Shown piece after piece: positions 10,346 to 50,856 of a DNA stretch of 64,000 nucleotides. Position 1 is the stretch's first letter, and every line of letters starts with the position of its first letter. A program made the translations under genes and the position numbers. This DNA comes from Vicinamibacteria bacterium (GTDB taxonomy: Bacteria; Acidobacteriota; Vicinamibacteria; Fen-336), in the NCBI GenBank assembly GCA_035570235.1, contig DATMML010000037.1:152426-216425 (forward strand). Direction: 5' to 3'. A model generated the notes under the pieces. The model worked only from the letters and a program-made list of their open reading frames with translations. It was not told the origin of the DNA and did no database searches.

Positions 10346-11055
10346 GCCGCCCGGCCGTGGGCGTCACCATCGGCTACGACGAGCGGCGCTCGGGCTTGTA
10401 CCTGCTGCGGCAGGACTACCTGCGATCGGTGGAGGCGGCGGGGGGGCTGCCCCTGGTCCTGGCCCCCGGCCGGCCGGAGGACGCCTCCGAGTTGCTCCAC
10501 CGCGTAGACGCCCTGATCCTGACCGGGGGGAGTGACGTGGATCCTGCCCTTTACGGGCAGGCCCCCCACCCCAAGCTCGGGCGCGTCATCCGCGAGCGGG
10601 ACGACTTCGAGCTGGCCCTGTGTCGGGAGGCCCTCCGCCGCGACCTGCCCCTCCTCGCTATCTGTCGGGGACACCAGGTGTTAAACGTTGCCACGGGCGG
10701 AACACTGATCCAGGACATCCCGTCTGAGCTGACAGGAGGGCTCGACCACGACCCGCGCTGCGAGCGCTGGGAGCGGGCCCACGATGTGCGGATCCACAAC
10801 GGGACCCGGCTTCGTGAGATCCTGGGCAGGGAGACGATTTCGGTGAACAGCTTCCACCATCAAGCCGTCGACCAGCTGGGACAGGGCCTTACGGTCTCCG
10901 CCTTCACGAGCGACGAGAGGATAGTGGAGGGCATCGAAAGCCCCGGCCACCGCTTTGTCCTCGGGGTCCAGTGGCACCCCGAGGCCTTCTGGAACCGGGA
11001 CGACGGGTTCCAGACCCTCTTCGGGGCCCTGGTGAGGACGGCCGCGGCGGCATGA
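10342..11055 (+). CDS. class I glutamine amidotransferase / gamma-glutamyl-GABA hydrolase-like (peptidase C26)
   Basis: GVTIGYD...LILTGGSDVDPALYG...LAICRGHQVLNVATGG...WHPE motifs (Cys-His triad); GTG start overlaps the argS stop. Confidence 0.75.
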   Translation: MSRPAVGVTIGYDERRSGLYLLRQDYLRSVEAAGGLPLVLAPGRPEDASELLHRVDALILTGGSDVDPALYGQAPHPKLGRVIRERDDFELALCREALRRDLPLLAICRGHQVLNVATGGTLIQDIPSELTGGLDHDPRCERWERAHDVRIHNGTRLREILGRETISVNSFHHQAVDQLGQGLTVSAFTSDERIVEGIESPGHRFVLGVQWHPEAFWNRDDGFQTLFGALVRTAAAA

Positions 11056-11882
11056 TTTCCTCTCTGGCCCTGAGCCTCTTCCTCGCGGGCGCCGGCTCCC
11101 CCGCCGGCATCAAGTGGGAGCGCCAGTTCGACGAGGCCCTCAAGAAGGCCAAGGCCGCGCGCAAGCCAGTCATCGTGAACTTCTGGGCGGAGTGGTGCGG
11201 ATGGTGCCGCCGGCTCGACAGGACCACCTACGCGGACCCCGTGGTCGCCCGCATCGCGGAGGACTTCGTGGCCGTGCGGGTGAACACCGAAGGCAGCAAG
11301 AAGGAGGTCGCGGTCGCCCTGCACTACGACGTCTCCTCTCTGCCCACCGTCGTCTTTCTCACTCCCGCCGGACGCCAGCTCTCCCGCGTCAACGGCTTCC
11401 AGGGACCGGGGGAGTTCCCCCACACGCTCTCTCGGGTCCTTCAGGAAGCCCAGAAGGTGATGGCCTGGGAGGCCGCCCTCGAGGAGAACCCCAAGGACGC
11501 GGCCACCCTCGCCAGCCTGGGCATCCACCTGTTCGACCAGGAGTTCTACGACGAGGGCGGGGACCTTCTGGAGCGGGCCCGATGGGCGGACGCGGAGCAG
11601 CCGGTCGCCAACCGCCGGAAGATCCGCCTGCTTCTGGCCATGCTCCAGAACAACCGGCACCACTACGCCGAGGCCGAGACTCTTCTCAAGGAAGCCCTCG
11701 CCTTCCGGCCCCCGGGAGAGGACGGCGCCAAGCTGCTCTTCGTTCTCGGCCGGACCTATGTGGCCTGGGGACGCGCCGCGGATGCGCGCGTGACCCTGCA
11801 GCAGATCATCAACGACTACGCCCAGAACCCTCTGGCCCAGAAAGCCCGAGACACCTTAGTCGCCCTCGACCACACCAAGTAG
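11052..11882 (+). CDS. thioredoxin-fold protein with TPR-like C-terminal region
   Basis: Signal peptide; WAEWCGWC CxxC active-site motif (DUF255/thioredoxin-like); helical TPR-like tail. Confidence 0.6.
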   Translation: MISSLALSLFLAGAGSPAGIKWERQFDEALKKAKAARKPVIVNFWAEWCGWCRRLDRTTYADPVVARIAEDFVAVRVNTEGSKKEVAVALHYDVSSLPTVVFLTPAGRQLSRVNGFQGPGEFPHTLSRVLQEAQKVMAWEAALEENPKDAATLASLGIHLFDQEFYDEGGDLLERARWADAEQPVANRRKIRLLLAMLQNNRHHYAEAETLLKEALAFRPPGEDGAKLLFVLGRTYVAWGRAADARVTLQQIINDYAQNPLAQKARDTLVALDHTK

Positions 11883-14498: not shown

Positions 14499-17400
14499 CT
14501 AGGCGCGGGCCAGGGCGTGGATCTCCTGCAGGCTGACGAGGTCCGTGGCCCGTTCCCGGAGGGCGTGGATGGCGTGGACGGTGGCGGCGGTGGCGGTCAA
14601 GGTGGTCACGACCAGCACCCCGTGCAGGGTGGCGCTCTTGCGGATGGCCCCGTCGTCATAGAAGGACTCGCGGCCGAGGGGGGTATTGAACACGATGGCG
14701 ATTTTCCGGCTCTTGATCAGATCCACCACGTTGGGCCGACCCTCGTTGACCTTGTAGACCATCTGCGCCGCCACCCCGTGCGCGTTCAGGTATTCCGCAG
14801 TGCCCCGGGTGGCCAGGATCGCAAACCCCATCTCCGCGAGGTCCCGCGCGTGGGGCAGGACCCCGGCTTTGTCGTGGTTGTTCACGCTGATGAAGACGGT
14901 GCCGGAGGTGGGGATCTGGAAGCCGGAGGCCATCTGGGCCTTCGCGAAGGCGATGCCGAAGTCCTCGGAGATGCCCATGACCTCCCCCGTGGATTTCATC
15001 TCCGGCCCCAAGATGATGTCGGTGCCGGGGAGCTTGAGGAAGGGGAAGACGGACTCCTTGACGAAGATGCGGGAGACGGTCAGGTCTTCGGTGACGCCTT
15101 GGGCGGCCAGGCTCTTGCCGGCCATGATCCGCGCCGCCACCTTGGCCAGTGGCACCCCGGTGGCCTTGCTCACGAAGGGGGTGGTGCGCGAGGCGCGGGG
15201 GTTCACCTCCAGGACATAGACCACGTCGTTCTTGATGGCGTACTGCACGTTCATGAGCCCGCGCACCCCCAGGGCAAGCCCGAGCTGGCGGGTATAGCGG
15301 CGGATGGTCTCCAGGTGGGGGGCGCTGATGCGGTAGGTGGGCAGAACCATGGCGGAGTCGCCGCTGTGGATCCCCGCCTCCTCGATGTGCTGGAGGATGC
15401 CCCCGATCACCACCCGCTCGCCGTCCCCCAGCGCGTCCACGTCCACCTCGAAGGCGTCCTCCAGGAAGCGGTCCACCAGGATGGGGTGCTCGGGAGAGGC
15501 TTTCACCGCCTCCCGCACGTAGCCCTCCAGGCTCCCCTCGTCGTAGACGATGGCCATGGCCCGGCCTCCCAGGACGTAGGAGGGCCGCACGAGCACGGGG
15601 TAGCCGATGTGGCGGGCGATGACCTTGGCCTCCTCGAGCGAGGTCGCGCTCCCGTTGTCGGGCTGGGGGATCTTGAGCTGGCTCAGGAGGGCGCTGAATC
15701 GCTGGCGGTCCTCGGCGAGGTCTACCGCGTCCGGGCTGGTGCCCAGGATGCGCACCCCCGCCTGGTGCAGGGGCACGGCCAGCCGGAGGGGGGTCTGGCC
15801 CCCGAACTGGATCACCACCCCCGCCGGCTTCTCCAGCTCCAGGACGTTCATCACGTCCTCGAAGGTCAGGGGCTCGAAGTAGAGGCGGTCGGAGGTATCG
15901 TAGTCGGTGGAGACCGTCTCCGGGTTGCAGTTGATCATGATGGTCTCGTACCCCTCCTCCTTGAAGGCGAAGGAGGCGTGGCAGCAGCAGTAGTCGAACT
16001 CGATCCCCTGCCCGATGCGGTTGGGCCCGCTGCCCAGAATCACCACCTTCTTGCGGTCCGTGGGCTCGGCTTCGCACTCCCGCTCGTAGGTCGAGTAGAG
16101 GTAGGGGGTATGCGACTCGAATTCCGCCGCGCAGGTGTCCACGCGCTTGTAGACGGGGACGATACCGGCCCCGATCCGCCGTGCCCGCACCCCCGCTTCG
16201 CTCGCGCCCGTGAGCTGGGCCAGGTGGAGGTCAGAGAACCCCATGCGCTTGGCCTGGCGGAGGGTCCTGTCGTCGACCCCGGGGAGGCCGGGGCCGGGGG
16301 GCGCGGGGGCAGGAGGGGGCGCCCCCCCCGGGGCCGAGTCGGGGGGGAGGGCCTGGCCGCCCGCCCGCGCCACGACCTCTCTCTGCATGTCCACGATCTG
16401 CTGAACCTGGTCCAGGAACCAGGGATCGATCCCGGTCATGCGGTGGATCTCCGCGTGCGGCCAGCCCAGCTCGAGGGCCCGCTTCACGTAGAAGATCCGG
16501 TCGGGGTCGGGAGAGAGGATCTTCTCCTTGATCCGGCGGTCGTCGAGGTCGGCGCGGTTGAAGCCGGAGCTGCTGATCTCCAGCCCCCGCAGCCCCTTCT
16601 GGAGGGCCTCCTTGAAGGTGCGGCCGATGGCCATCACCTCCCCCACCGACTTCATTTGCGTGCCCAGGGTGGGGTTCGCGTCCGGGAACTTCTCGAAGGC
16701 CCAGCGGGGGATCTTCACCACCACGTAGTCCAGCACGGGCTCGAAGCAGGCGGGGGTCACGCGCGTGATGTCGTTTCGGATCTCGTCCAGGTGATAGCCG
16801 ATGGCGAGGAGGGCGGCGATCTTGGCGATGGGAAAGCCGGTGGCCTTGCTGGCCAGGGCGGACGAGCGCGAGACCCGGGGATTCATCTCGATCACGACCA
16901 TGCGGCCGGTGCGGGGGTCGACCGCGAACTGGATGTTGGAGCCCCCCGTCTCCACCCCCACCTCGCGGATGATGGCGCGGGACGCGTTGCGCATGGCCTG
17001 GTACTCGCGGTCGGTCAGGGTCTGGGCGGGGGCCACGGTCACGGAGTCGCCGGTGTGGATCCCCATGGGATCGAAGTTCTCGATCGAGCAGATGACCACG
17101 AAGTTGTCCGCGCGGTCCCGCATGACCTCCAGCTCGTACTCCTTCCACCCGATCACGGACTCCTCGATGAGGATCTCGTGCACGGGGGAGAGATCGAGGC
17201 CCCGCTCGACCAGGTCCTCGAACTCCTCCATGTTGTAGACGATCCCGCCCCCCGTTCCCCCCAGGGTGAAGGAGGGCCGGATCACCGCGGGTAGGCCCGT
17301 GTACTCCAGGACGGAGCGGGCCTCCCCCACCCGGCGGGCAAAGCCGCTCCGGGGCACCTCCAGGCCGATGCGGCCCATGGCCTCCTTGAAAAGCCGCCGG

Positions 17401-17783
17401 TCCTCCCCCACCTCTACCGCCCGCCGGCTGGCCCCGATCAGGCGGGTGCCCAGCCGGTCCAGGACCCCGCGCTTCGACAGCTCCACGGCCAGGTTGAGGG
17501 CGGTCTGGCCGCCCACGGTGGGGAGGAGCGCGTCCGGCCGTTCCCGCTCCAGGATGGCGGTCAAGACCTCGGGGGTCAGGGGCTCCACATAGGTGCGATC
17601 CGCGTACTCCGGGTCGGTCATGATCGTGGCCGGGTTGGAGTTCACGAGCGAGACCCTGAGCCCCTCCTTGCGCAGGACCTTGATGGCCTGGGTGCCGGAG
17701 TAGTCGAACTCGCAGGCCTGGCCGATCACGATCGGTCCGGAGCCAATTACGAGGACGGAGTGGAGAGTGGGGTCCTTGGGCAT
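14499..17783 (-). CDS. carB: carbamoyl-phosphate synthase large subunit
   Basis: 1094 aa, duplicated ATP-grasp halves, highly conserved CarB N-terminus ([24 protein letters not shown]), MGS-like C-terminus. Confidence 0.95.
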
Positions 17784-17859
17784 CGACCCATCAGTATCTC
17801 ACGGTGGAGTCGCCCCCGCAGACGGACGCGGGGAGCGCGGCCGCCTGGCCCTTCCGGCC

Positions 17860-18969
17860 TCAGGCCGGCCGGTGGGCCGCCATGAGCGCGATGAACTCCT
17901 GAAAGAGGTAGTGGCTGTCGTGGGGGCCGGGGCTGGCCTCGGGATGGTACTGGACGGAAATCACGGGCAGGTCCCGGTGGCGGAAGCCCTCCACAGTGCC
18001 GTCGTTCAGGTTCACGTGGGTCTGGATGAACTCGGGTCGGGCGAAGAGGGACGGATCCACGGCGAAGCCGTGGTTCTGGGATGTGATCTCGACCTGCCCG
18101 CTCTTGAGGTTCTTGACCGGATGGTTGGCCCCGCGGTGGCCGAACTTGAGCTTGAAGGTCTTCCCCCCGCAGGCCAAGCCCAGGATCTGGTGCCCGAGGC
18201 AAATCCCGAACACCGGCACCTTCTCCATGAGGACCCGGGTCGCCTCCACCGCGTAGGTGCACGGCTCGGGGTCTCCGGGGCCGTTGGAGAGGAAGATGCC
18301 GTCGGGTTTGAGGGCCAAGGCATCCCGCGCGGAGGTCGTGGCCGGCACCACCGTCACCTGGCAGCCGCCGGCGGCCAGGCTGCGCAGGATGTTCCGCTTC
18401 ATGCCGAAGTCGTAGGCCACCACCCGGTAAGGCAGGCTCTTCGGCCCCGACCCCGCCTCCAATCGATAGGGTTCCGGGCAGGTGACCTCCCGGGCCAGGT
18501 CCAGGCCGATCATGGAGCGGGAGCCCCGCGCGCGCTCCACGAGCGCGGCCCCGTCCCGGGAGAGGGTGGAGATGATGCCCCGCTTGGCCCCGTGGGTGCG
18601 CAGGTGGCGGGTGAGGGCGCGGGTGTCGATCTCGCTGATGCCCACCACCCCCGCCTCGTCCAGGTAGCGGTGCAGCTCCCCCGACGCCCGCCAGGAGGAG
18701 GCCATGGTCGAGACCTCCCGGACCACGAAACCCGCGACCTGGGGGCGCGCTGACTCCACGTCCTCGCGGTTGATGCCGTAGTTGCCGATGTGGGGGTAGG
18801 TCATGGTCACGATCTGCCCCGCGTAGGAGGGATCGGTCAGGACTTCCTGGTAGCCACAGAGGGCGGTGTTGAACACCACCTCTCCCGTGACCTCTCCGGC
18901 GCGCCCGAAGGACTGTCCCTCGAAGAGGGTGCCGTCCTCCAAGGCTAGCGTCGCCGATCGGTGCTCCAC
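17860..18969 (-). CDS. carA: carbamoyl-phosphate synthase small subunit (glutamine amidotransferase)
   Basis: CarA N-domain plus GATase with GICLGHQ and HGFAV motifs; GTG start after a [14 protein letters not shown] (ORF track extends further 5'). Confidence 0.9.
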
Positions 18970-19295
18970 TCTTCCCGTCCCTCTCCTCCGCGGGGCCCGC
19001 GCCCACGGTCGCACTAAGGATATCCGGCCTCGGCTTCTCGTCCAAGGACCGAACCGCTCAACTTCACGCTTGCCTTTTGCGCCCCCCTCTGGAAGGATTC
19101 GCAGCGCATGCCTCACCTCCGCTTGCTGGCCCTGGCGATGGCCTTCGCCCCCGGCGAAGCCCTGGTCCAGCAGGAGGGGTGCCGCCCTCATCGACGCCGG
19201 CGCGCACCCCGGAGCCGCCCAGGCCTGTCCTGGGCGAATGCGTCGAGGTCTCCTTCGGCTACACCTGCAACCATCCCTCGAGAGGCGTGGAACTC

Positions 19296-20540
19296 CCCCA
19301 CGCAATGAGAAGCATGACGACCAAATGGCCCTGGGTACTAGCGATAACCCTGCTCGCCACGTCTTCCCGTGGGGTGAGTCAGGCCGGCGAGCCCGCCGAC
19401 CCTCCGACGCCGGCCGTCGAGGCTCAGCCGCCGCCCCCAGAAAGACCGCCAGAACCGCCCTCTTCCCCGTCGAATCCCGAATGGCAATATGGCGGCTTTG
19501 CAGATGTCGGTTACCTCCACGATTTCAACGATCCCTCCAACCACCTGTTCCGGAGCCGTGGCACCACGTTTCACGTCAACGAAGTGGACTTGAACATGGC
19601 CGGGCTCTATTTGAGGAAATCGACGTCGGAGACCTCGCGCTGGGGAACGGAGCTGACGCTGCAGGCCGGCAAAGATTCGGAGGTCTTCGGATTTTCCGCA
19701 ACCGCACCCAATCTCGCCGGTTCCAATTGGCTCCGGCATCTGGGCCCAACGAACGTCTCCTACCTTGTGCCGGTCGGGAAGGGACTCACCCTTCAGGGCG
19801 GAATCTTCGGCAGCTTTATCGGGTACGACTCCCTCTACGCCAAGGACAATCTCAACTACACGCGCCCGTGGGGTGCAGATTTCACGCCCTACTTCATGTT
19901 GGGCGTGAACGCTCAATACCCGTTCTCTGCAAAACTGACCGCAACTCTGCTCCTGCTCAACGGCTATTGGCACCTGGCCCACGCCAACAACGTTCCCAGT
20001 GCAGGTGGCCAGCTTGCGTACAAGGCGACCGAACATCTGACCTTGAAGGAAACGGTTCTTTACGGGCCGCACCAGTCCGACACCTCGCTCGCGCTCTGGC
20101 GTTTCCTATCCGACAGCATCGCCGAATGGAAGGGGGAGCGACTCACCGTGGCCTTCGACTATTTCGTCGGAACGGAGAGAATCGCCGCTCCCGGAAATCC
20201 CCGAGCGCTCTGGATGTCCGCCCAACTGCCGCTGCACCGCGTGATCAACCCTCGACTCAGCCTCACGATCCGCCCTGAGGTCTACTGGGACCGCGACGGC
20301 CGCACCACGGGATTCCAACAGACGGTGAAGGCGAATACGACGACGCTCGAGTACCGAATTCCGCTCCGCCGCGCCAGCGCCATCCTGCGGCTAGAGCACC
20401 GCATCGACGATTCACGCGGACCCGGCGGAGGCTTCTTCAATGACGGAGAGCTGTCGCCGGGAGTCGTCGGCCTCACGCCAACCCAGAATCTCCTGGGCCT
20501 AGGGGTGATACTGACTTTCGACTCGAGCTCCCATCCTTGA
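19296..20540 (+). CDS. putative outer-membrane beta-barrel protein / porin
   Basis: Signal peptide, Pro-rich linker, alternating amphipathic β-strand pattern, aromatic C-terminus; GC content visibly lower than flanks. Confidence 0.45.
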
Positions 20541-22585: not shown

Positions 22586-23932
22586 TCAGACCCCCCGCCG
22601 CCGGCGCACCACCCGGGTACCCGCGATGCGGTCGTGCAGGCCATGTCCCCGAAAGGCGATCATCAGGAAGCCGAGCCCCAGAACGGTGCCGGAGAGCAGG
22701 TAGCCGAAGACTCGCAGCGCGGCCCGGGGCATCCCGATGGGGAAGGCCCCGCCCTCTCCCTCGACGCGGAGGTCCAAGAACTCCTTGCCGGGCGTGGCCC
22801 CTTTGATCCCCCAGAAGTAGATGTAGTAGGCGAGGCCGAAAAGGGCGGAGACCAGGGCGAGGCTCACGGAGACCAGGATGGGGAGGAACGACACGTCGGC
22901 CGACGCTCGCGTGTCGCGGGTCCACCAGTAGTAGCCGATGGGAGTAACCAGGACGGCCTGCAGCGCGGTCACCAGGATGGCATCGATGAGACCCGCCCCC
23001 AGGCGGGGCCCGAATCCGGCCGCTTCCTTGCCCGCCGCCATTCCGGCCCGGCGCTCGGCCGTGCGCAACGGCTTCCCCACGGGGCCGGGCCGCGGCGGGA
23101 AAGACCGGGCGGGGGCGGCCAAGGGGACGAGGGAAGCGGCGGGAGAGGGAGCCAGCGAGCTTACCCGGGGCGCCTCCGCCCGCGGCACTCGGGGCAGGGG
23201 GTCCCCCGCGGCGACCTGACCGGGGAGGGGGGCGGCGGGGGCGGGCTCGCGGGTCGCCTCCGGAGAGGAATCCCCCCGCGGCTCCTTGTCCGGGGCCACT
23301 CGGGAGCCGGGGTCGGTGGGAGGCTGCCCCGGCGCTCCTTCCGGGCTTGGCGCCACCTCGGCCCGCAGGGCTTCGGGGATCGGCTGGTGTCCGGTGGTCG
23401 AATCGAGGCGCTGCCCGTCCGTGGAGAGGGGGCTCCCGCAGGCGTTGCAGAAGCGGGCGGGAAGGGCGACGGCGGTGCCGCAGGATGCGCAGACCGCCTT
23501 GGGGGGGCCGCTGGGCTGGGCCAGCTGGACCCCGCACTCGCGGCAGAAGAGGTCCCCTTTGCGGTACGCGGTCTGGCAGGACGGACACTGCAGGTGCGGC
23601 ACCGAGGGGTGTTGGACCACCTTGGCGCCGGGGTCCTCGATCTGCAGGTCATCGCGGAAGAGCAACCGCGCGGTGCCGATGGCCAACAGGTCGCCGTCGC
23701 GGAGGCTTCGCTCGCTGACCCGATCGCCGTTGACCACGGAGCCGTTGGAGGAGTTGCAATCCCGCAGGTAGAACTGGTTTGCCCGGTACTCGATGACGGC
23801 GTGGCGACGCGACACCATGGCGTCGGGGAGGACCAGGTCGTTAGAGGGATCGCGGCCGATGGAGAGGAGGGTGCGGGGAAGGGGGATCTCCTTCCGGGAG
23901 GACGAGGTTGGGTTCACGATCAGCTTCGGCAT
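22586..23932 (-). CDS. FHA domain protein with double zinc ribbon and C-terminal RDD membrane domain
   Basis: N-terminal FHA (SIGRDPSNDLVL...SRRHA...NGSVVNG); two CxxC..CxxC pairs; Pro-rich linker; C-terminal RDD-family TM domain. Confidence 0.7.
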   Translation of the reverse strand: MPKLIVNPTSSSRKEIPLPRTLLSIGRDPSNDLVLPDAMVSRRHAVIEYRANQFYLRDCNSSNGSVVNGDRVSERSLRDGDLLAIGTARLLFRDDLQIEDPGAKVVQHPSVPHLQCPSCQTAYRKGDLFCRECGVQLAQPSGPPKAVCASCGTAVALPARFCNACGSPLSTDGQRLDSTTGHQPIPEALRAEVAPSPEGAPGQPPTDPGSRVAPDKEPRGDSSPEATREPAPAAPLPGQVAAGDPLPRVPRAEAPRVSSLAPSPAASLVPLAAPARSFPPRPGPVGKPLRTAERRAGMAAGKEAAGFGPRLGAGLIDAILVTALQAVLVTPIGYYWWTRDTRASADVSFLPILVSVSLALVSALFGLAYYIYFWGIKGATPGKEFLDLRVEGEGGAFPIGMPRAALRVFGYLLSGTVLGLGFLMIAFRGHGLHDRIAGTRVVRRRRGV

Positions 23933-23938
23933 CGCTCC

Positions 23939-26506
23939 CTAGCCGGCTCTGAACGTCTGCTTGAGCGTGACCCTCGCCTTGACCTTGATCCCTTTCTTCA
24001 TCGCGGGCGCGTATTTCCAGCTGCGGATGGCGGCCAGGACCGCTTCGTCCACCGCCCGGTTGCCCCCCGACTCTAGCACCCTGGGCTCCGTCACCTCTCC
24101 ATTTTCCGTCACCACGAAGGAAACGGAAACCGACACGGAGTCGCCCGACTTCATCTTGGGCGCGCTCTCCGGGTAGGAGACGGACAGTCCGGAGAGCTTC
24201 TTGGCCAGGGTGTCCACGTCGCTGGCCGCGTTCGCGTAGATATGGGCGGTGTCCACGACGTCGGCCGCGGGCGGGGGCGGGGCCTTGACGAGGGCCTTGA
24301 GCTGGGCATCGAGCTTGCCCCTCTTCCCCGCCTGGACGGTGAGCGTCCCCGCCCACGGCTCATATCCATCCTTGGTCATCTCGACCCGGCGGCTCCCCAC
24401 CCGGAGCTTGAGGTCGGTCTGGGGAGTGGGCCCAACCCGGGCCCCGTCGATCGAGACCAAGGCCCCGTAGGGAGTCGACAGGATGTCCGCCACACTGGTG
24501 GCAGGGGCGGAGCGGGTCAAGGGGATGACCGCCTCCGCCGCGGGCAGCTCCGGGCTCAGGACCACGGTCTGGGTCTTGGGCTCGTAGCCCTTCAACTCGA
24601 CCTTGACCTCGTAGCTTCCCAGGGGAAGATCCCGGAGATCGAGGGGGGTCTCGCCGCGCGCCTGGCCATTCACGGTGACCGCCGCCGCTCCGGGCTGGCT
24701 CACCACGCGGATCATGCCCTTCTTCTCCTCGATGGCGGGGGGCATGGGCTCCGGGGTCGGAAGGGTCTTGCGGGTCACGGCCACGCTGGGGGTGGGGACG
24801 GGCGGCGCGGGCTCGGTCCGGCCCGCGCTCCTGAAGAGCACGATGCCGACGAGGCCGAGGGCCAGCAGGAAGAGCAGGGCCGCTCCCCCCAGGATCAAGC
24901 CGACGGGAATGCGGGAACGCACCGCGGGGGGGCCAGCCACGGGGGGCGCCTCGGGCAGGGGGGGCGCCGTCGGCCGGGGCAAGGGTGGAGCGGCCGTCCT
25001 CCCCAAAGACCGGGTCTCTTCGAGGACGGGGTGCTTCTGGGTGGGGCCGCCCTTGTCCGCGGGCCCGCGCGACTTTGCCGTGGGCCCGGGGGCGGCCATT
25101 ACTACCGTGGCCCCCTCTTCGGCGGGCACGGAAGCATCCATGAGGATCGTCGACTCCGACGCCTCGGATCCCAGGGGGGGCGGGGGGGACGGCCGGGCCG
25201 CGGGCTTCTTGGGCAGGGCGCCTGCCTTCATGAGGACGGTGGCCGGCGCGTCGTCGGCGGGGGGAGCTTTTATGAGGACGGTGGCCGGCGAGTCGTCGGT
25301 CTCCGCCGGGGGAGGAGCGGGGGCCGAGGGTCTCTTCTTGGCCGGGGGCGGCGCGGTGGGCGCCTTCATGAGGACGGTGGCCGGGGCGTCGGATCCCGAG
25401 GGCTGGGCCTTTATGAGCACGGTCGCGGGAGAATCGTCCTCGGCCATCGGTAGGGGTGCGAGGGGTCGTTCGACCGGCTTCGCCTTGGGCGGCGCGGGGG
25501 CGCGGGTGGCCGCCGGCTCCTCCCGGGGGTGGGCCGGAGGCGGCGCCGGGGGCTGGATCTCGGGGAGAGGGATGTGGGCGAGCGTCGTGGTGGTCTCGAC
25601 GGTGGCGCTCGCGGTCACGATCGTCTGGTCCGCCCCCAGCCCGCCGAACCAGGAGCCGAGGCAATACTCCAAGTCCTGGACGAACGCGCCCGCGGTCTGG
25701 TAGCGGTCGTCGGGCTTCTTGGCCAGGGCCTTGCCGAACACCTCGTGCCATTTCTGGGGCACGAGGCCGTGCATCTCGAGGTTCGCGGGCTCGATGGGGT
25801 CGACATGCACCAGCTTGTAGAGGATCGAGGTCACGTTGTTCCCCGGGAACGGCTGCTCTCCGGAGAGCATCTCGAAGCAGCACACGCCCAGAGAGAAGAT
25901 GTCGCTCCGCCCGTCGAGCTTGTCGCCCATGGCCTGCTCGGGCGACATGTAGGAGGGCGTGCCGAGGAGGGTGCCCGACTGCGTCATCTCCGCATCCACC
26001 AGCTTCGCGATCCCAAAGTCGGTCACTTTCACCCGATCCTCGTCGAACAGGATCAGGTTCGAGGGCTTGATGTCGCGGTGGATCACGCCTTTGCTGTGGG
26101 CGTAGTCGACGGCGGAGGCGATCTGGCTGGCCAGGCCGATCACCTTCTCCGGCTTGAAGCGCACGCCCTTCTCGATGAGGGAGGCGAGGGTTTGGCCCTC
26201 CACGAACTCCATGGCCAGATAGGGCACCCCCCCCTCCTCGCCAATGTCGAAGAGGGTCACGATGTTCGGATGGGAGAGCGTCCCCGAGATTCGGGCCTCG
26301 TGGTAGAACCGCTCGATGAAGGACTTGTACTGCGGGCTCTGGCGCGGGATGTCCAGCCGGATGGTCTTGATGGCGAGGGTGCGCTTGATCAGGGGGTCGA
26401 AGGCCTTGTAGACGGCCCCCATGGCCCCGAAGCCGATGCTCTCCTGGACCTTGTAGCGGCCGATGCTCTGGGGCATCTGCTCGGTTGATCGGCTGTTGTC
26501 GTCCAT
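23939..26506 (-). CDS. serine/threonine protein kinase with peptide repeats, TM segment, two PEGA domains and TonB-C-like C-terminus
   Basis: Hanks kinase subdomains (GAMGAVYKA, HRDIKPSN, DFG, SPE); four (D/A)PATVL(I/M)KA repeats; PEGA-like β domains; C-terminal TonB-C-like fold. Confidence 0.85.
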   Translation of the reverse strand: MDDNSRSTEQMPQSIGRYKVQESIGFGAMGAVYKAFDPLIKRTLAIKTIRLDIPRQSPQYKSFIERFYHEARISGTLSHPNIVTLFDIGEEGGVPYLAMEFVEGQTLASLIEKGVRFKPEKVIGLASQIASAVDYAHSKGVIHRDIKPSNLILFDEDRVKVTDFGIAKLVDAEMTQSGTLLGTPSYMSPEQAMGDKLDGRSDIFSLGVCCFEMLSGEQPFPGNNVTSILYKLVHVDPIEPANLEMHGLVPQKWHEVFGKALAKKPDDRYQTAGAFVQDLEYCLGSWFGGLGADQTIVTASATVETTTTLAHIPLPEIQPPAPPPAHPREEPAATRAPAPPKAKPVERPLAPLPMAEDDSPATVLIKAQPSGSDAPATVLMKAPTAPPPAKKRPSAPAPPPAETDDSPATVLIKAPPADDAPATVLMKAGALPKKPAARPSPPPPLGSEASESTILMDASVPAEEGATVVMAAPGPTAKSRGPADKGGPTQKHPVLEETRSLGRTAAPPLPRPTAPPLPEAPPVAGPPAVRSRIPVGLILGGAALLFLLALGLVGIVLFRSAGRTEPAPPVPTPSVAVTRKTLPTPEPMPPAIEEKKGMIRVVSQPGAAAVTVNGQARGETPLDLRDLPLGSYEVKVELKGYEPKTQTVVLSPELPAAEAVIPLTRSAPATSVADILSTPYGALVSIDGARVGPTPQTDLKLRVGSRRVEMTKDGYEPWAGTLTVQAGKRGKLDAQLKALVKAPPPPAADVVDTAHIYANAASDVDTLAKKLSGLSVSYPESAPKMKSGDSVSVSVSFVVTENGEVTEPRVLESGGNRAVDEAVLAAIRSWKYAPAMKKGIKVKARVTLKQTFRAG
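25215..25445. repeat. four tandem copies of an approx. 22-nt unit (TTCATGAGGACGGTGGCCGGCG-like) inside the kinase CDS, encoding the PATVL(I/M)KA peptide repeats
   Basis: Direct inspection of the plus-strand sequence; copies at about 25223, 25268, 25363 and 25408. Confidence 0.5.
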
Positions 26507-26743
26507 ATCCCCCGAGCCCTGCCTACCCCTCTAATACGTTCTGCGAACGCGGAAAGAGCGTGGCAAAAGCGAGGCGAAGCACCGCACCCCTGGGCGTTCG
26601 GACTTTAGCACCAAGGTGAAAAGGTGTCAACGCGAGAGGCGCTCAAGTCACGGAGAGGGAAGGGGTTGCGGTGTCGGGTTCGGGAACAACCGAGCGTCCG
26701 CGGCCGTATGGACTGCCGGAGGCTCACCTATAATGGAGGCGCA

Positions 26744-28375
26744 ATGACGGAACGCCCCCCGGCCATTCTCGATTACGGGGTGTTCCAGCAGCCCATCAGT
26801 CCCCTCTTCCTCGACTACCTGGCCGGCCGCAACGGTGTCGAGCGCTTCCTGGGCAGCGCGCGCTGGGACCTCGATGCTCTCTCGGAAGCAAGCGACCGCG
26901 CGCTCACCCACGAGCGGCCCCGGGAAGCGGTGGCGGCCGCGCTCGTGCGCCAGCAGGAGTCGCGAGGAGCAGCTCACGCGGCGGCGCGGGCGGCCGAGCT
27001 CAAGGAGCCGGGCACGGTCGCGATCGTGACCGGGCAGCAGGCGGGTCTCTTCGGCGGCCCCCTCTATGTGCTCTACAAGGCCTTGGGCGCCCGCAAGGCG
27101 GCGCGGCTGCTCCAAGCGCGCCGCGGTCGTTCCGTGGTGCCCGTGTTCTGGGTGGCCTCCGATGACCACGATTTTGCGGAGGTGCGCTCCGCGACTGTTC
27201 TCGACGAGAACGGCCAGATCCGCACCCTGCGCTATAGTCCCCCCCGCGAGCCCGTGGCCCAGCCCGCCTCCCAAATCGTCCTGGACGCCACCGTGGCCGC
27301 CCTCGTGCAGGAGCTGCGGCAGTGCCTGCCCGAGGGCCTTCACCGCGACGAGGTGCTCGCGCGGCTGGGCGAGTGTTATCGGCCCGGGGAGACGCTGGCC
27401 GGGGCTTTCGCCCGCTTTCTCTCCGCTCTCCTCCCCGACCTGGTGGTGCTCGATCCCTCCGACCCCGCCCTGAAAGCCCTGATGGCCCCCCTTCTGGCCC
27501 GCGAGATCCAGGAGGGCTCCCCCACCTCCCGCCTGGCCCTCGAAACCGGCGCCGCCCTTCTGGCCGCGGGCTACCATCAGCAGGTGCCGGTGCGCCCCGG
27601 CTTCCTCAACCTGTTCGTCCTGATGGAGGGCGAGCGGCGCGCACTGGGCATCCAGAACGGCACCGTAGAGGTGCGTGGGCTGGGTCGCCGCATGCCCGTG
27701 GAGGAGGCTCTGAGGCTCCTGAATGCCGCGCCCAAGGACTGGAGCCCAGGGGTGCTCCTCCGCCCCTTGGCCCAGGACCACCTGCTGCCTACGGCCGCCT
27801 ATGTGGGGGGGCCGGCGGAGATTGCCTATCATGCGCAGATCGGCCCCGCCTACGCCCACTTCGGCATCCCCCGACCCTTGCTGCTCCCCCGCCCCAGCCT
27901 CACCCTCTTGGAGCCCGCGCAAGCCCGGGCTCTCGAAGCCGAAGGGCTACGCCTCACCGACCTCGAAGGAGACCCCGAAGGCCTGCTCACGCGCTGGGCG
28001 CGGGAGGCCCACCCGCAGGTGGAGGCCGCCTTCGCCCGCGCCCGCGAAGCCCTCCTTCAAGAGATGGCGAGTGTCGAGGAGGCCCTGGCCGCCGTCGATC
28101 CCACGCTGCGCGCGGCCGCCAACGCCGCCCGGGGGCGTGCCATCCATCAGATCGAGACCCTGCACCAGAAGTCCACCCGGGCCCTGAAAAAGCGGGACCA
28201 GAGCCGGGCCGAACGCCTGCGCCGCACGCGGGACGCCCTCTTCCCGGGGGGCTCGCTCCAGGAGCGGGGCCTGGCCCTGGTCAGCGCCCTGGCCCGCCAC
28301 GGCCAACCCCTCGTGGAGGAGACCGAGCGCGGCCTCGACCCCTGGGCACGGGGACATCAGGTGATACAACTGTGA
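26744..28375 (+). CDS. bshC: bacillithiol biosynthesis cysteine-adding enzyme BshC
   Basis: IVTGQQAGLFGGPLYVLYKALGA N-terminal signature of the BshC/YllA family; 543 aa; GGAGG RBS 5 nt upstream of ATG. Confidence 0.75.
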   Translation: MTERPPAILDYGVFQQPISPLFLDYLAGRNGVERFLGSARWDLDALSEASDRALTHERPREAVAAALVRQQESRGAAHAAARAAELKEPGTVAIVTGQQAGLFGGPLYVLYKALGARKAARLLQARRGRSVVPVFWVASDDHDFAEVRSATVLDENGQIRTLRYSPPREPVAQPASQIVLDATVAALVQELRQCLPEGLHRDEVLARLGECYRPGETLAGAFARFLSALLPDLVVLDPSDPALKALMAPLLAREIQEGSPTSRLALETGAALLAAGYHQQVPVRPGFLNLFVLMEGERRALGIQNGTVEVRGLGRRMPVEEALRLLNAAPKDWSPGVLLRPLAQDHLLPTAAYVGGPAEIAYHAQIGPAYAHFGIPRPLLLPRPSLTLLEPAQARALEAEGLRLTDLEGDPEGLLTRWAREAHPQVEAAFARAREALLQEMASVEEALAAVDPTLRAAANAARGRAIHQIETLHQKSTRALKKRDQSRAERLRRTRDALFPGGSLQERGLALVSALARHGQPLVEETERGLDPWARGHQVIQL

Positions 28376-28394
28376 TGAGAAGGGGTGCCGCGCC

Positions 28395-29516
28395 ATGAGG
28401 CTGGGAATCACGTGCTACCCGACGGTGGGGGGATCGGGAGCGGTGGCGGCGGAGCTCGGGAAGCAGCTGGCCCGCCGCGGCCACGAGATCCACTTCGTGT
28501 CCTACCGCCGCCCCTTTCGCCTGGGCGACTTCCAGCAGAACATCACCTACCACGGAGTGGACATCTCCTCCTACCCGCTCTTTGAGTATCCCCCCCACGA
28601 CCTGGCTCTGGCCGTGAAGATGGCGGAGGCCGCCCGCGAGCACCACCTGGATCTCTTCCACGTCCACTACGCGATCCCCCATGCCATCGCCGGCTTCCTG
28701 GCCCAGCAGATGCTGGGGGCGTCGGCGCCCCGAATGGTGACCACCCTCCACGGCACCGACATCACCCTCGTGGGCCAGGACCGTTCGTTCTTCGAGATCA
28801 CGCGCTTTGGCATCGAGCGCTCGGACGGCGTGACCGCGGTCTCGGAGTTCCTGAAGCGGATGACGACGGAGCTGTTCCAGGTGAAAAACCCCATAGAGGT
28901 CATCCCCAACTTCGTGGACCTCTCCCTGTACTCCCCCGAACGCAACCATCGGGACCGCTCGGCTTTCGCCGCCCCCGGCCAGAAGGTCCTGCTTCACATC
29001 TCCAACTTTCGCCCCGTCAAACGGGTGGTGGACGTGGTGCGCATCCTGGAGCGGGTGAGCCGGGAAGTGGACGCGGTGCTCCTCATGGTGGGGGAGGGCC
29101 CGGAGCGCTCTTCCGCCCAGGCTCTCGTCCGGCGCCTGGGCCTGGAGGAGCGCGTGCGCTTCCTGGGCACCCAGGAGAGCATCGAGGAGATCGCGGGCCT
29201 GGCCGACGTGTTCCTGCTTCCTTCGGAGCTGGAATCGTTCGGCCTCTCCGCCCTGGAGGCCATGGCCTGCGGCGTCCCCGTGGTGGGCTCCGACGCGGGC
29301 GGGCTGCCCGAGGTCGTGAAGCATACCGAGAGCGGCTTCCTCCTGCCCGTGGGGGACGTGGAGGGCATGGCCGCCCGCACCCTGGAGATCCTGAAGGACG
29401 AGGAGCGCCGGCGGGAGATGGGGCAAGCGGGCCGGCGCCGCGTGGAGTTCCTCTTCAACGCCGACCGGGTGGTCAGCCAGTACGAGCGCTACTATGAGCG
29501 GGTGCTGAGCCCGTGA
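28395..29516 (+). CDS. bshA: N-acetyl-alpha-D-glucosaminyl L-malate synthase BshA (GT4)
   Basis: Near-identical N-terminal block to B. subtilis BshA (LGITCYPTVGGSGAVAAELGKQLARRGHEIHF...HYAIPHA) and a GT4 C-terminal EX7E region. Confidence 0.85.
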   Translation: MRLGITCYPTVGGSGAVAAELGKQLARRGHEIHFVSYRRPFRLGDFQQNITYHGVDISSYPLFEYPPHDLALAVKMAEAAREHHLDLFHVHYAIPHAIAGFLAQQMLGASAPRMVTTLHGTDITLVGQDRSFFEITRFGIERSDGVTAVSEFLKRMTTELFQVKNPIEVIPNFVDLSLYSPERNHRDRSAFAAPGQKVLLHISNFRPVKRVVDVVRILERVSREVDAVLLMVGEGPERSSAQALVRRLGLEERVRFLGTQESIEEIAGLADVFLLPSELESFGLSALEAMACGVPVVGSDAGGLPEVVKHTESGFLLPVGDVEGMAARTLEILKDEERRREMGQAGRRRVEFLFNADRVVSQYERYYERVLSP

Positions 29517-30235
29517 GCGACTTCGATCTCGCCGCGGTGTGCGCCCACCCCGACGATGCCGAGCTGATCATGGGGGGGACGATCGCCCGCGAGGCCGCGC
29601 GTGGCCGGCGGGTGGCCCTCGTGGACCTTACCCGCGGGGAGAGCGGCAGCCGGGGCACGCCGGAGACGCGGGCCGCGGAGGCCACGGAGGCGGCCCGGAT
29701 CCTGGGCGTGGCCCACCGGGAATCCCTGGGCCTGCCCGACGCGCGCCTGGCCGCCGTGCCCGAGCAGAAGGACGCGCTGGTGGCGGCGCTGCGCCGCCTG
29801 CGCCCGCGGGTAGTGCTCCTGCAGCACTGGGAGCAGCGCCACCCGGACCACGCCGCGGCCAGCCGCATCGTCTACGACGCGTGCTTCCTGGCCGGCCTCC
29901 GGAACTACCGCTCGGACCTGGGGCCGGCCCACCGTCCCCGGAAGCTGATCTATGCCGTGACCCTGACCGAGGCGGTGGAAGTCCCGCCCAGCATTGTGGT
30001 GGACATCACGACCACCTGGGAAACCAAGCTCCGGGCCATCGCCGCCTTTGCCAGCCAGTTCTCGCCCGGCCCCGGGGAGGCCGTGGCCCTTCCCTTCGAC
30101 CGCTTCCGGGCGCACGTCGAGCTCGCGGCCCGACGCCACGGCCAGCGCATCGACGTCGAGTTCGGGGAGGGCTTCTTGACGCGCGAGCCCCTGGCCGTGG
30201 ACGACCTTCTGTCCCTGGGGGGGCGCTCGATCTGA
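29513..30235 (+). CDS. bshB: N-acetyl-alpha-D-glucosaminyl L-malate deacetylase BshB (LmbE/PIG-L family)
   Basis: AHPDDAE zinc-binding motif of the LmbE family; start overlaps the bshA stop. Confidence 0.75.
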   Translation: MSDFDLAAVCAHPDDAELIMGGTIAREAARGRRVALVDLTRGESGSRGTPETRAAEATEAARILGVAHRESLGLPDARLAAVPEQKDALVAALRRLRPRVVLLQHWEQRHPDHAAASRIVYDACFLAGLRNYRSDLGPAHRPRKLIYAVTLTEAVEVPPSIVVDITTTWETKLRAIAAFASQFSPGPGEAVALPFDRFRAHVELAARRHGQRIDVEFGEGFLTREPLAVDDLLSLGGRSI

Positions 30236-33921: not shown

Positions 33922-34042
33922 ACCCCCCGCTTCGGGCCATCGACCCGGGCCGCCCCCGGCGCACCCTGCAGCTTCTTGAACGCAAGCGGAACCTGGGGCA
34001 TGGCGGAAACGTACCTCTTTTGAACCCGTCCATCCGCAGGTC

Positions 34043-34895: not shown

Positions 34896-35228
34896 GTGAT
34901 CACAGGGTTTAACACCGACGTGAAGTATCGGGGCCTTGTCTACCATGTCCAGACCGAGGACAAAGGCGAGGCCAACCCCCTGATCGAGACCCTGATCTAC
35001 AAAGGCGGAGAGATCCTCGCTTCCCGCCGCCTGCCCTATGCGGAGCTGATCCGCAGCCGCGACGACGAGGCCGCCATCACGAAGCTGATGGAAGATCAGC
35101 ACAAGGGCATGATCATGGAGGTCAAGCGCGGGAAGTTCGACCCCGGAGTGGACCGGACAGAAATCGAGGACCTCTCCCTGGACGAGATCGTGCTCGCCTA
35201 CCTGGCGGGGCGGGCCGCCGCCAAGTAA
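34896..35228 (+). CDS. small hypothetical protein (110 aa)
   Basis: Clean ORF with balanced composition and lower local GC; no recognised family. Confidence 0.35.
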   Translation: MITGFNTDVKYRGLVYHVQTEDKGEANPLIETLIYKGGEILASRRLPYAELIRSRDDEAAITKLMEDQHKGMIMEVKRGKFDPGVDRTEIEDLSLDEIVLAYLAGRAAAK

Positions 35229-35558: not shown

Positions 35559-36851
35559 TTGCCAAGCGCGAGCGACGACCCGAGCCTGGACGCCTTGCGT
35601 CAGAGGCTCGACGCGGAAGAGGCGGCCTACGCCGAGCTGCTGGCCGCGGTCGATCGTCTGGCTTCCTTCCCCCTTCCTGCGGAGGCGCTGCCCGATCTGC
35701 CCGCCCGGGTTGGTCTCCTCAACATGCTCTGGGAGGCCCCGCCCCCGCCCCCGGGGTCGGGGTTGGGAGGGAAGGCCAGGAGGTGGGTCTGGGAGGCGCT
35801 GGCCCCCGCCCGCGCCCGTCAGACCGAGTTCAACGCCGCCCTCGTCCAAGTCCTGAACGGCTACCTGGAGGAGACGGGCCGGCTGCACGCGCGCTTGCGC
35901 GAGCTCGCCTCCGCCCTCGTCCACTATCTGCAGCGCGTCCTCCCTCTGGTCGACCTCCGCGACCGCATGGCCTCCGCCCTCGCGACCACGCGCGCGGAGC
36001 TGATTCTCGAGGCCTTCGACCGGCGACAGGAGTCCCAGGCCCGGCGGCTTCAGGGCCTGCTCGCCCTGCGCGACCGCCTGGAGACCGTGTCCGCGGAGGT
36101 GGACGCCATTCGGGGAGCGCTGGGAGCGGGGGCGCCGCCCCCGGCCCTGGCCATGTCGGCGCTGCGCGCGGCGGAGGACTCGGCCTACACCGCGTTCGAA
36201 AACCGCTTCCGCGGCAGCCGGGAAGAGATCCGGGAGCGGCTCGCCGGCTACGCCGCCCTCTTCCAGGGTCTCGCCCCCGTCGTGGACCTGGGCTGCGGCC
36301 GCGGGGAGTTCCTGGACGTGCTCCGGGAGCGGGGCATCGCCGCCCGCGGCGTGGAGGGGAACGCGAGCGCGGTCCAGCACTGCCGGGACCGGGGCTTCGA
36401 GGTGGTCTTCGGCGACCTTCTGGCCTTCCTCCACGCCGAGCCCGCGGGTGCCCTGGGGGGCGTGTTTGCGGCCCAGGTGGCCGAGCACCTCCCCCCCGCC
36501 GTCCTGGGGCAGATGCTCAAGGAGGCCCACCGCGCCCTCCGGCCGGGCGGGCTCCTCCTCCTGGAGACCGTGAATCCGCGCTCGGTGGTGGGCTTCCTCG
36601 AGGTCTACAACCGCGACCTCACGCACGAGCGGCCGCTGCATCCCGACACGCTGAGCTTCTTGGCCGCGGCCTCGGGCTTCACCGACGTGCGCGTGGAGCT
36701 GCGCTCTCCCGTGGACCCCTCCTCCCGCCTCCAAGCCATCCCCCCCGAGGGCTTGCCCGAGCGGGCGGCCACGCTCCTGAACGAAAACCTGGAGCGGCTG
36801 AACGGCCTGCTCTACGGGCCCCTGGAGTACGCGCTCATGGCGCGTCGGTAG
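35559..36851 (+). CDS. class I SAM-dependent methyltransferase with N-terminal coiled-coil region
   Basis: VVDLGCGRGEF motif I and downstream motifs; N-terminal approx. 200 aa helical/coiled-coil; TTG start uncertain. Confidence 0.65.
   Translation: MPSASDDPSLDALRQRLDAEEAAYAELLAAVDRLASFPLPAEALPDLPARVGLLNMLWEAPPPPPGSGLGGKARRWVWEALAPARARQTEFNAALVQVLNGYLEETGRLHARLRELASALVHYLQRVLPLVDLRDRMASALATTRAELILEAFDRRQESQARRLQGLLALRDRLETVSAEVDAIRGALGAGAPPPALAMSALRAAEDSAYTAFENRFRGSREEIRERLAGYAALFQGLAPVVDLGCGRGEFLDVLRERGIAARGVEGNASAVQHCRDRGFEVVFGDLLAFLHAEPAGALGGVFAAQVAEHLPPAVLGQMLKEAHRALRPGGLLLLETVNPRSVVGFLEVYNRDLTHERPLHPDTLSFLAAASGFTDVRVELRSPVDPSSRLQAIPPEGLPERAATLLNENLERLNGLLYGPLEYALMARR

Positions 36852-42733: not shown

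Positions 42734-42756
<23 letters not shown>
41403..42756 (-). CDS. ATP-grasp-like protein (glutathionylspermidine-synthase / circularly permuted ATP-grasp type)
   Basis: VLKPAHGYGGQSV and surrounding pre-ATP-grasp-like blocks; the N-terminal 270 codons of the track ORF are judged a spurious extension; GTG start inferred. Confidence 0.4.
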
Positions 42757-44019
<1,263 letters not shown>

Positions 44020-44023
<4 letters not shown>

Positions 44024-44955
44024 GAGGCCGCCCCCGCGCCGCCCCCGAGCAGGAGGTAGAGCACGGCCATGCGGACGGCCACCCCGTTGGTGACCTGGTC
44101 CAAGATCACGGAGTAGGGCCCGTCGGCCACCTCGCTCGCGATCTCCACCCCGCGGTTCATGGGGCCGGGGTGAAGGATCAGCACGTCCTTCTTGGCCCGC
44201 CGGACCCGCTCCTCGGTGAGGCCGAAGCGGTTGAAGAACTCCCGGGGGGAGGGGAGGTAGCCGCCCGTCATCCGCTCCCGCTGGATCCGCAGCACCATGA
44301 TCGCGTCCGCCCCCTCCACCGCCTCCTCGATCCGCCAGGTGACGGGGGCCAGCCGCTCGATCCCGGGGGGCACCAGGGTGGGAGGGGCGCACAGCACGAC
44401 CGAGGCCCCCATCTTCGAGAGCAGCCACAGGTTCGAGCGGGCCACCCGGCTGTGCAGCAGGTCCCCTACGATGGCCACCCGCAGACCCTTGAGCCGCCCC
44501 TTGCGCTGGCGGAGGGTGAGGGCGTCGAGGAGGGCCTGGGTGGGGTGCTCGTGGGCCCCGTCCCCCGCGTTCACGATCGCGGACCGGCAATGCCGGGCCA
44601 GGAAGTGCGGGGCCCCGGAGGAGGCGTGGCGGATCACGATCATGTCTGGGTTCATGGCCTCGAGGTTCTTGGCGGTGTCGAGCAGCGTCTCTCCCTTCTG
44701 GACGCTGGAGGTGGCGGTCGAGATGCTGAGGCTGTCCGCGGAGAGGACCTTCTCCGCGATCTCGAACGACGAGCGGGTGCGCGTGGAGGCCTCGTAGAAG
44801 AGGTTGACCACGGTCTTGCCCCTGAGCACGGGCACCTTTTTGATGGGGCGGTCCAGCACCTCCTTCAGCCCGTCCGCGGTGTCGAGGACCACCTGGATAT
44901 CGGCCGGCTCCAGGGGCTCGATGCCCAGGAGATGGCGGTGGGGGAACGCGCTCAC
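44020..44955 (-). CDS. pyrB: aspartate carbamoyltransferase catalytic subunit
   Basis: STRTR carbamoyl-phosphate motif, HPTQ and HPGP motifs. Confidence 0.9.
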
Positions 44956-45569
44956 TTCCCTCTCCTTCCCCGGGCCCGCCCGCGGCGGGCCCCCCCCCGC
45001 TGGGCCCGCCGGGCCCGGCGCTCCAGGAGCAGGACCCCGTCCCTTCCGTCCTCCTCCCGGAGAAGCACCTGCACGATCTCCTGCCGCGCCGTGGCCAGGC
45101 TCCGACCCGCGTAGTCGGCGCGGATGGGGAGCTCGCGGTGGCCCCGGTCCACGAGCACGGCCAGCTCGATGCGGTCGGGGCGGCCGAAGTCGATGAGCTG
45201 GTCGAGGGCGGCGCGCACCGTGCGCCCGGTGAAGAGCACGTCGTCCACCACGATCACCGTGCGGCCGTCGATGGAGAAGGGGATCTCGGTTCCCTTGGTG
45301 ATGGGCTGGCTCGCGATCATCGTGAAATCGTCGCGGTAGAGGGAGATGTCCAGGGCCCCCACCGCGGGCTCGACCCCGCTCGCCTCCCGGAGGAGACCGG
45401 CCAGCCGGCGGGCGAGGGGCACCCCGCGGCTGCGCACCCCCACCAGCACCACCCCCCGCATGTCGGGGTGGCGCTCCAGGATCTCGTGGGCCATGCGGGC
45501 CAGGGTGCGGGCCACGCGGCCCGCGTCCATGAGAACTGCCTTCTCAATCTGGGGAGAGGGGCCGGCCAT
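44952..45569 (-). CDS. pyrR: bifunctional pyrimidine operon regulator / uracil phosphoribosyltransferase PyrR
   Basis: PRTase motif [13 protein letters not shown]; conserved PyrR N-terminus; unusual Arg-rich C-terminal tail; stop overlaps the pyrB start (GTGA). Confidence 0.85.
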
Positions 45570-50822: not shown

Positions 50823-50856
50823 CCCCCTCCCCCCCGCTCTGGTACGCTTGGAAGTT

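Follow-up and report, generated by a model that had tools for sequence, protein, structure and literature searches.

A contiguous bshC-bshA-bshB gene cluster predicted to encode bacillithiol synthesis in a Vicinamibacteria bacterium of the phylum Acidobacteriota

Does a single locus of a Vicinamibacteria bacterium (phylum Acidobacteriota) encode the whole of bacillithiol (BSH) synthesis and, if so, did that locus reach the genome by recent transfer or by descent? The locus lies on contig DATMML010000037.1 of GenBank assembly GCA_035570235.1, in a stretch of 64,000 nucleotides (nt; positions 152,426 to 216,425, forward strand) that we refer to as the window. Within it, three open reading frames (ORFs), bshC, bshA and bshB, follow one another on the (+) strand at 26744-30235, a span of less than 3.5 kb, and together they make up a complete bshA, bshB and bshC set. 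An earlier, sequence-only reading of this DNA had proposed a bacillithiol pathway, in a high-GC genome that was apparently not a Firmicute, and had suggested that the cluster may have been acquired as a unit. It was right about the genome, which belongs to class Vicinamibacteria and has a GC content of ~70% throughout the window. We conclude that the locus is, with high probability, a chromosomal, vertically inherited bshC-bshA-bshB operon encoding the three known steps of BSH synthesis.

The three genes are adjacent and co-oriented, as had been described, and an independent public gene call, on a 180-kb ENA metagenome contig (ERZ27253551, k141_2469804) that carries the exact protein, gives the same genes with the same lengths. 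The bshC stop codon and the bshA ATG are separated by a 19-nt gap containing GAAGGGG, and bshA and bshB overlap by 4 nt in the junction GTGA, where the bshB GTG start (29513-29515) runs into the bshA TGA stop (29514-29516). Because the junctions are tight (gaps of 19 nt and -4 nt) and terminator-like sites were not found inside the cluster, the three genes likely form a single transcription unit. At E <= 1, Rfam matched no structured RNA in the cluster or its surroundings. A GTG at 26624 was considered as an alternative start for bshC, which would add 120 nt to the gene. It was rejected in favor of the ATG at 26744, since BshC homologs are mostly 543-551 amino acids (aa) long, the interval 26624-26743 contains conserved non-coding promoter blocks, and the public call is likewise of 543 aa.

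The identity of each protein was assessed using curated NCBIfam equivalog cut-offs, Pfam domains and matches to solved structures in the PDB. Cut-offs at the equivalog level are meant to set iso-functional proteins apart. Each of the three proteins exceeds its cut-off, and the structural matches agree, which bears out the gene names first given. The E-values of the hidden Markov model matches (3e-125 for BshC, 9e-163 for BshA and 3e-70 for BshB; NCBIfam) are such that the family matches are not due to chance.

BshC matches TIGR03998 at 419.1 bits (cut-off 265.8) over profile positions 3-529 of 529, and its Pfam domains (PF10079, 275 bits; PF24850, 80 bits) correspond to a Rossmann-like domain and a C-terminal coiled-coil. 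The sole PDB match is B. subtilis BshC, 4WBD (E = 1.8e-43, 152 bits). This full-length family match and the single solved relative answer the concern that the protein might be some other YllA-like family member, and close homologs have already been labelled BshC by the NCBI and JGI pipelines. The signature quoted for it in the sequence-only reading, TGQQAGLFGGPLY, is present at residues 96-108, with the block GQQAGLFGGPLY at residues 97-108. The blocks GQQxGLxxGPLY, FWVA..DHD and RP..Q..LPT..Y.GGP.E..Y all align with B. subtilis BshC 4WBD.

BshA has a GT-B fold with two glycosyltransferase family 4 (GT4) domains (Pfam Glyco_transf_4 and Glycos_transf_1) and matches TIGR03999 at 541.5 bits (cut-off 273.7) over positions 1-374 of 375, the next-best family reaching 147.6 bits. 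Its top PDB matches are B. anthracis BshA (2JJM and 3MBO, 405 bits) and B. subtilis BshA (5D00, 389 bits), and its full-length identity to 2JJM is 51%. An N-terminal block had been called near-identical to that of B. subtilis BshA; this was too strong, as identity is 67% for the first 43 residues and falls to 56% when residues 1-107 are compared. The alternative that this GT4 enzyme is of the mycothiol type finds no support, as the MshA model gives only 84 bits against a cut-off of 462.5 and MshA structures match at only ~63 bits.

BshB, a PIG-L protein in Pfam, matches the BshB1 model TIGR04001 at 236.4 bits (cut-off 182.5). Scores for BshB2 (51; cut-off 195), MshB (47.7; cut-off 224) and Mca (47.5; cut-off 277) are far lower, and a mycothiol-type identity (MshA/MshB) was rejected, both models falling far below their cut-offs. 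PDB matches comprise 1UAN (Thermus TT1542, LmbE-type), 6P2T, which is N-acetyl-alpha-D-glucosaminyl L-malate deacetylase 1, and the LmbE-related protein 2IXD. The motif AHPDDAE, also quoted earlier, occupies residues 11-17, and a second metal-site motif, HPDH, residues 110-113; both (A11-H12-P13-D14-D15 and H110-P111-D112-H113) align with those of 1UAN and 6P2T. We take His12, Asp15 and His113 to be the zinc ligands, by analogy with solved homologs such as BcZBP (2IXD).

From what is known of these families (PMC5790435), BshA would act as a retaining GT4 enzyme that transfers N-acetylglucosamine (GlcNAc) from UDP-GlcNAc to L-malate to form GlcNAc-malate, BshB would be a zinc-dependent LmbE-type enzyme that removes the acetyl group to leave glucosamine-malate (GlcN-malate), and BshC would add cysteine to GlcN-malate to give BSH. 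BSH would then serve as the low-molecular-weight thiol redox buffer of the cell and as a detoxification cofactor. Given a complete bshABC set, the earlier proposal that BSH or a derivative is the low-molecular-weight thiol here is a reasonable one.

Several points weigh against this interpretation. The papers found contain no chemical evidence for BSH in any Acidobacteriota. The BshC reaction has never been reconstituted in vitro from any organism (PMC5790435), and the last step of BSH synthesis therefore rests on Bacillus and Chlorobaculum genetics. The BSH-dependent genes fosB, bstA and ypdA had been named as a check on the prediction; no YpdA/Bdr, Brx, BstA/DinB or FosB was found among the ~55 ORFs of the 64 kb that were scanned with Pfam and NCBIfam, so the use of BSH downstream of its synthesis is unsupported by the window. 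The sole thiol-related protein among those ORFs, a thioredoxin-like/TPR protein at 10971-11882, is not BSH-specific. Finally, 64 kb of the genome are in view, and nmbA or gshAB may lie elsewhere.

The last point bears directly on the nature of the end product, which could be N-methyl-bacillithiol (N-Me-BSH) or another BSH derivative if an NmbA-type methyltransferase were encoded outside the window. Hiras et al. 2018 (PMC6282198) used gene content to predict that Acidobacteria make BSH or N-Me-BSH, and in that survey about one third of the BSH-pathway-positive Acidobacteria carried an nmbA ortholog, which, with the limited view of the genome, speaks for a derivative. On the other side, the window offers one candidate, a S-adenosylmethionine (SAM)-dependent methyltransferase at 35559-36851, 5 kb downstream of the cluster, and it has no match to 9RI2, the NmbA structure, at E <= 0.01. 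Its best match is an unrelated methyltransferase, 3DLI; its NCBIfam matches are weak and generic, it adjoins a glycosyltransferase, and it was rejected as NmbA. It is the only SAM-methyltransferase of the window besides an Ada/MGMT DNA-repair protein. The 2025 NmbA paper places Acidobacteriota among the phyla with a BSH pathway but mostly without NmbA (PMC12719100). Since a NmbA-like gene was not found in the window, and in view of the 2025 survey, the final product is more likely BSH than N-Me-BSH, and we regard a derivative as unlikely.

The same evidence was weighed against the idea that these Bsh-family enzymes use, for instance, some acceptor in place of L-malate and so yield a glycosyl thiol that is not bacillithiol. 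The assignments made here are based on family scores rather than on substrate-binding residues, there is no biochemistry in this phylum, and the identity of BshC to the B. subtilis enzyme is low (the 152-bit match), all of which leave some room for such a product. However, all three proteins exceed equivalog-level cut-offs, BshA resembles a crystallised BshA over its full length at the identity given above, and BSH or N-Me-BSH has been detected wherever a bshABC set was tested, namely in Chlorobiaceae, Polaribacter and Thermus (PMC6282198). A thiol of another kind is thus very improbable, and synthesis of bacillithiol remains our reading of the cluster.

The failure to reconstitute the BshC reaction may be due to the lack of a partner protein (PMC5790435). 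Because such a partner has been postulated, we searched for a fourth gene family that recurs beside bshC or bshCAB across phyla, using all-vs-all clustering of the ORFs at 80 loci, and found none. The only recurring families were BshC, BshA, BshB and a clade-restricted pair of kinase and FHA-domain proteins, in a clustering made noisier by shadow ORFs in these high-GC genomes. The neighborhood comparison therefore yields no candidate for the missing partner of BshC.

Whether the cluster was inherited or acquired was addressed by comparing its surroundings among the same 80 loci, from which all synteny counts were drawn. The closest loci in species-representative genomes belong to Vicinamibacteria and Acidobacteriota metagenome-assembled genomes, with identity of up to 95%. 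Adjacent bshC and bshA are found in 25 of the 25 Vicinamibacterales loci that extend far enough, and a contiguous bshC-bshA-bshB (C-A-B) arrangement in 19 of these 25. In one locus (L032), an insertion of ~2.4 kb separates bshA from bshB, and five others (L006, L011, L015, L018 and L042) have bshC-bshA with bshB not within the flank, which makes the position of bshB the least stable part of the cluster. Most Vicinamibacterales loci keep the entire upstream block, in which carB, carA, an FHA/RDD protein gene and a protein kinase gene precede a divergent bshC-bshA-bshB, at BshC identities down to ~63%. The divergent kinase gene stands directly upstream of bshC in the Vicinamibacterales loci that reach that far and in Marinacidobacterales-type loci, and the FHA/RDD protein is conserved with the kinase in those same loci. 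In Marinacidobacterales, the sister order in the same class, the FHA/RDD-kinase pair and divergent bshC are kept, with bshA and bshB not within 6 kb. A BshC tree (neighbor-joining, midpoint-rooted and without bootstrap, its deep nodes being unresolved) places the Vicinamibacterales sequences in one clade with the order C-A-B throughout. This synteny across the order, together with the single BshC clade, indicates that the cluster is old and vertically inherited within Vicinamibacterales.

The suggestion that this genome recently acquired the three genes as a horizontally transferred unit must be set against these observations. It gains some plausibility from the C-A-B order of distant Armatimonadota, Ignavibacteria, Zixibacteria and Steroidobacteraceae and from the intermixing of Ignavibacteria and Zixibacteria sequences in the BshC tree, and for these two reasons transfer of the cluster as a unit probably does occur somewhere in bacteria. 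For the genome at hand, however, GC content, GC content at third codon positions (GC3), codon usage and tetranucleotide (4-mer) content of the cluster are within the spread of the other 32 window genes and of sliding windows, so that its composition is indistinguishable from that of the rest of the window. The scanned ORFs include housekeeping genes (carA, carB, pyrR, pyrB, pyrC, pyrD, pyrF and argS) and no integrase, transposase or other mobile-element gene, and no tRNA-flank signature was seen among the neighbors scanned. The pyrimidine genes carB, carA, pyrC, pyrB, pyrR, pyrD and pyrF are spread over 14499-19305 (-), 42734-45569 (-) and 48622-50822 (+), and the region is therefore core chromosome. 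The conserved carB-carA-FHA/RDD-kinase-bshCAB block, the single BshC clade of Vicinamibacterales and the retention of kinase and divergent bshC at the same locus in Marinacidobacterales also argue against a recent arrival. Recent horizontal transfer was thus rejected on composition, codon usage, 4-mer profile, synteny and the BshC tree, and we give it hardly any credence. The inherited cluster may go back to an ancient transfer, into the ancestor of the order or a still earlier one, or to an ancient joining of bshAB to bshC.

The kinase and FHA/RDD genes are divergently paired with bshC across both Vicinamibacteria orders (L002-L034, L059 and L060), including loci in which bshA and bshB are unlinked. 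This pairing may reflect a functional link or merely conserved synteny. Coordinates of these genes, of the cluster and of the candidate promoter elements between them are collected in Table 1.

Table 1. Genes of the bsh locus and predicted promoter elements upstream of bshC (window coordinates)
Feature	Coordinates	Strand	Description
bshC	26744..28375	+	543 aa; putative cysteine-adding enzyme of BSH synthesis
bshA	28395..29516	+	373 aa; GT4 glycosyltransferase, UDP-GlcNAc:L-malate (N-acetylglucosaminyl-malate synthase)
bshB (BshB1 type)	29513..30235	+	240 aa; LmbE/PIG-L zinc deacetylase for GlcNAc-malate
Ser/Thr protein kinase	23939..26506	-	Pfam Pkinase, PEGA, TonB_C; divergent neighbor directly upstream of bshC
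FHA/zinc-ribbon/RDD protein	22586..23932	-	Pfam FHA, DZR, RDD; downstream partner of the kinase
ECF-sigma-like motif (extracytoplasmic function sigma factor)	26683..26708	+	GGAAC-N17-CGTA upstream of bshC; predicted
TATAAT hexamer	26729..26734	+	9 nt before the bshC ATG; possible -10 element
Sigma-70-like kinase promoter	26602..26630	-	Predicted; TTGACA-N17-TAAAGT, TG before the second hexamer, 10/12 consensus matches

The intergenic region between the kinase gene and bshC is 237 bp long. The pattern GGAAC-N16/17-CGTA, which resembles promoters of extracytoplasmic function (ECF) sigma factors, has three matches in the window against 0.23 expected. Twelve relatives (L001-L008, L019, L020, L032 and L038) have it upstream of bshC at the corresponding position, with a spacer whose sequence varies. 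A second copy lies at 33988-34013 (+) in the intergenic region of a LytS/LytTR pair, and likewise in two relatives (L004, 12098-12123; L020, 11178-11203). The pattern may mark an ECF-sigma regulon that would include bshCAB; no ECF sigma gene was seen among the ORFs scanned in the window. Closer to the gene, 10 of the 13 subgroup loci have TATAAT or TATGAT at a distance of 8-9 nt from the bshC ATG. The nucleotides separating hexamer and ATG vary, and GGAGG before bshC occurs only in the window and in L001, a pattern that suggests a leaderless or near-leaderless bshC mRNA. Transcription of the operon would start from these conserved ECF-like and TATAAT elements.

Both hexamers of the predicted kinase promoter show almost no variation among the loci of Vicinamibacterales and Marinacidobacterales, whereas the bshC-proximal elements differ between subclades. 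An operator common to the kinase gene and bshC throughout the class was rejected on this ground: the kinase promoter is class-wide and the bshC-proximal elements are subclade-specific, a pattern that gives such a site no support. The interval at ~26644-26671 (+), with the kinase -35 element on one side and the bshC promoter elements on the other, contains CAAGT and AAgGGcTTGCgg, which show little or no variation in 16 of 16 aligned Vicinamibacterales intergenic regions. With their inverted CAAG/CTTG, these blocks may be a candidate transcription-factor site.

Two predicted tandem bshCAB promoters in one subclade and the class-wide pairing with kinase and FHA proteins raise the speculative and rather doubtful idea that thiol synthesis is wired to envelope or stress signalling. 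Mycothiol genes are under SigR control in Streptomyces, and in Firmicutes control is by Spx. If the idea were true, the wiring of thiol synthesis here would resemble the SigR arrangement more than the Spx one.

On the 3' side of bshB, a convergent ACT-domain gene ends 7 nt away and is followed by an Ada-type methyltransferase/regulator and the LytS/LytTR two-component pair. Directly after this pair, a 110-aa ORF at 34896-35228 (+) matches the RomY N-terminal domain model NF053858 at 113 bits (cut-off 50), and it has an 86%-identical tblastn match in L069. RomY is a regulator known from the control of polarity and motility in Myxococcus. Further along, a long ORF at 50069-52801 (+) carries an FTR1-type iron permease domain along with cytochrome c domains. 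Since pyrF (50127-50822), in a different frame, shares DNA with its 5' part, the ORF probably starts further downstream. At 53131-57718 (-) there are three large ORFs in a row (503, 534 and 431 aa) whose GC3 is coding-like and which have no Pfam match, and after them comes a membrane protein of 863 aa (57731-60322) that contains a PTPS_related domain.

What the locus adds is modest. No literature linking bacillithiol to Vicinamibacteria specifically was found in the searchable library. The pathway has already been predicted for Acidobacteria, in 2018 and in 2025 (PMC6282198, PMC12719100), and the C-A-B arrangement is shared by four or more further groups of phylum level, so its novelty had been overstated. 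With the pathway predicted for the phylum and the cluster inherited rather than recently acquired, the finding is an ordinary one and changes no concept. It adds an abundant soil class, Vicinamibacteria, to the lineages predicted to use bacillithiol and not glutathione, and it agrees with published work in which BSH and its derivatives rank as the most widespread low-molecular-weight thiols of bacteria. The compact bshCAB operon is also a convenient cassette for heterologous reconstitution. Placed in a host that lacks BSH, it would test whether BshC needs ubiquitous substrates only, although the Bacillus genes allow the same test and the locus thus gives no unique leverage on the BshC mechanism.

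Among known systems, the BSH pathway of B. subtilis (BshA, BshB1/BshB2 and BshC; Gaballa et al. 2010, reviewed in PMC5790435) is matched at the equivalog level in all three families and in the chemistry predicted from them. The deacetylase here is of the BshB1 type, and BshC has both the Rossmann-like and the coiled-coil domain. Gene arrangement differs. In B. subtilis, the bshA-bshB1 operon includes mgsA, and bshC, at a separate site, has a promoter of its own and also belongs to a two-gene operon with panE (PMC5790435), which agrees with the earlier remark that bshC of Firmicutes is usually unlinked from bshAB. The cluster described here is contiguous, is not linked to mgsA or pantothenate genes, and is preceded by the ECF-like and TATAAT elements. 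Spx-type control, known from Firmicutes, is not expected in Acidobacteriota.

Chlorobaculum tepidum is likewise a non-Firmicute, Gram-negative bacterium with bshABC enzymes, which serve its N-methyl-BSH pathway (PMC6282198). Its genes (bshA CT0548, bshB CT1419, bshC CT1558 and nmbA CT1040; PMC6282198) are dispersed, as judged by locus number, and NmbA turns BSH into N-Me-BSH, whereas here the bsh genes are clustered and no NmbA-like gene lies in the window. The mycothiol pathway of Actinobacteria (MshA-D) has homologous first two steps, a GT4 enzyme followed by a LmbE-type deacetylase, and its product likewise joins a glucosamine scaffold to cysteine. In contrast, the third enzyme here is BshC and not MshC, which resembles cysteinyl-tRNA synthetase, and there is no MshD acetyltransferase.

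The closest parallels in gene order are the C-A-B clusters of other lineages, namely Armatimonadota (L030), Ignavibacteria (L036, L055 and L056), Zixibacteria (L040, L061 and L065), Steroidobacteraceae (L045, L052 and L058) and another gammaproteobacterial locus assigned to Gammaproteobacteria (L057). These have identical order and orientation, with short or overlapping junctions, but their BshC and BshA are 30-36% and 45-56% identical to those described here, they are without the kinase and FHA genes upstream, and their BshC sequences form separate clades. The order C-B-A is found in Sulfomarinibacteraceae-type Acidobacteriota and in Hydrogenedentota. Linkage of this kind has precedent in the history of the pathway itself, as bshC was first found partly through its "occasional co-localization" with bshA (PMC5790435).

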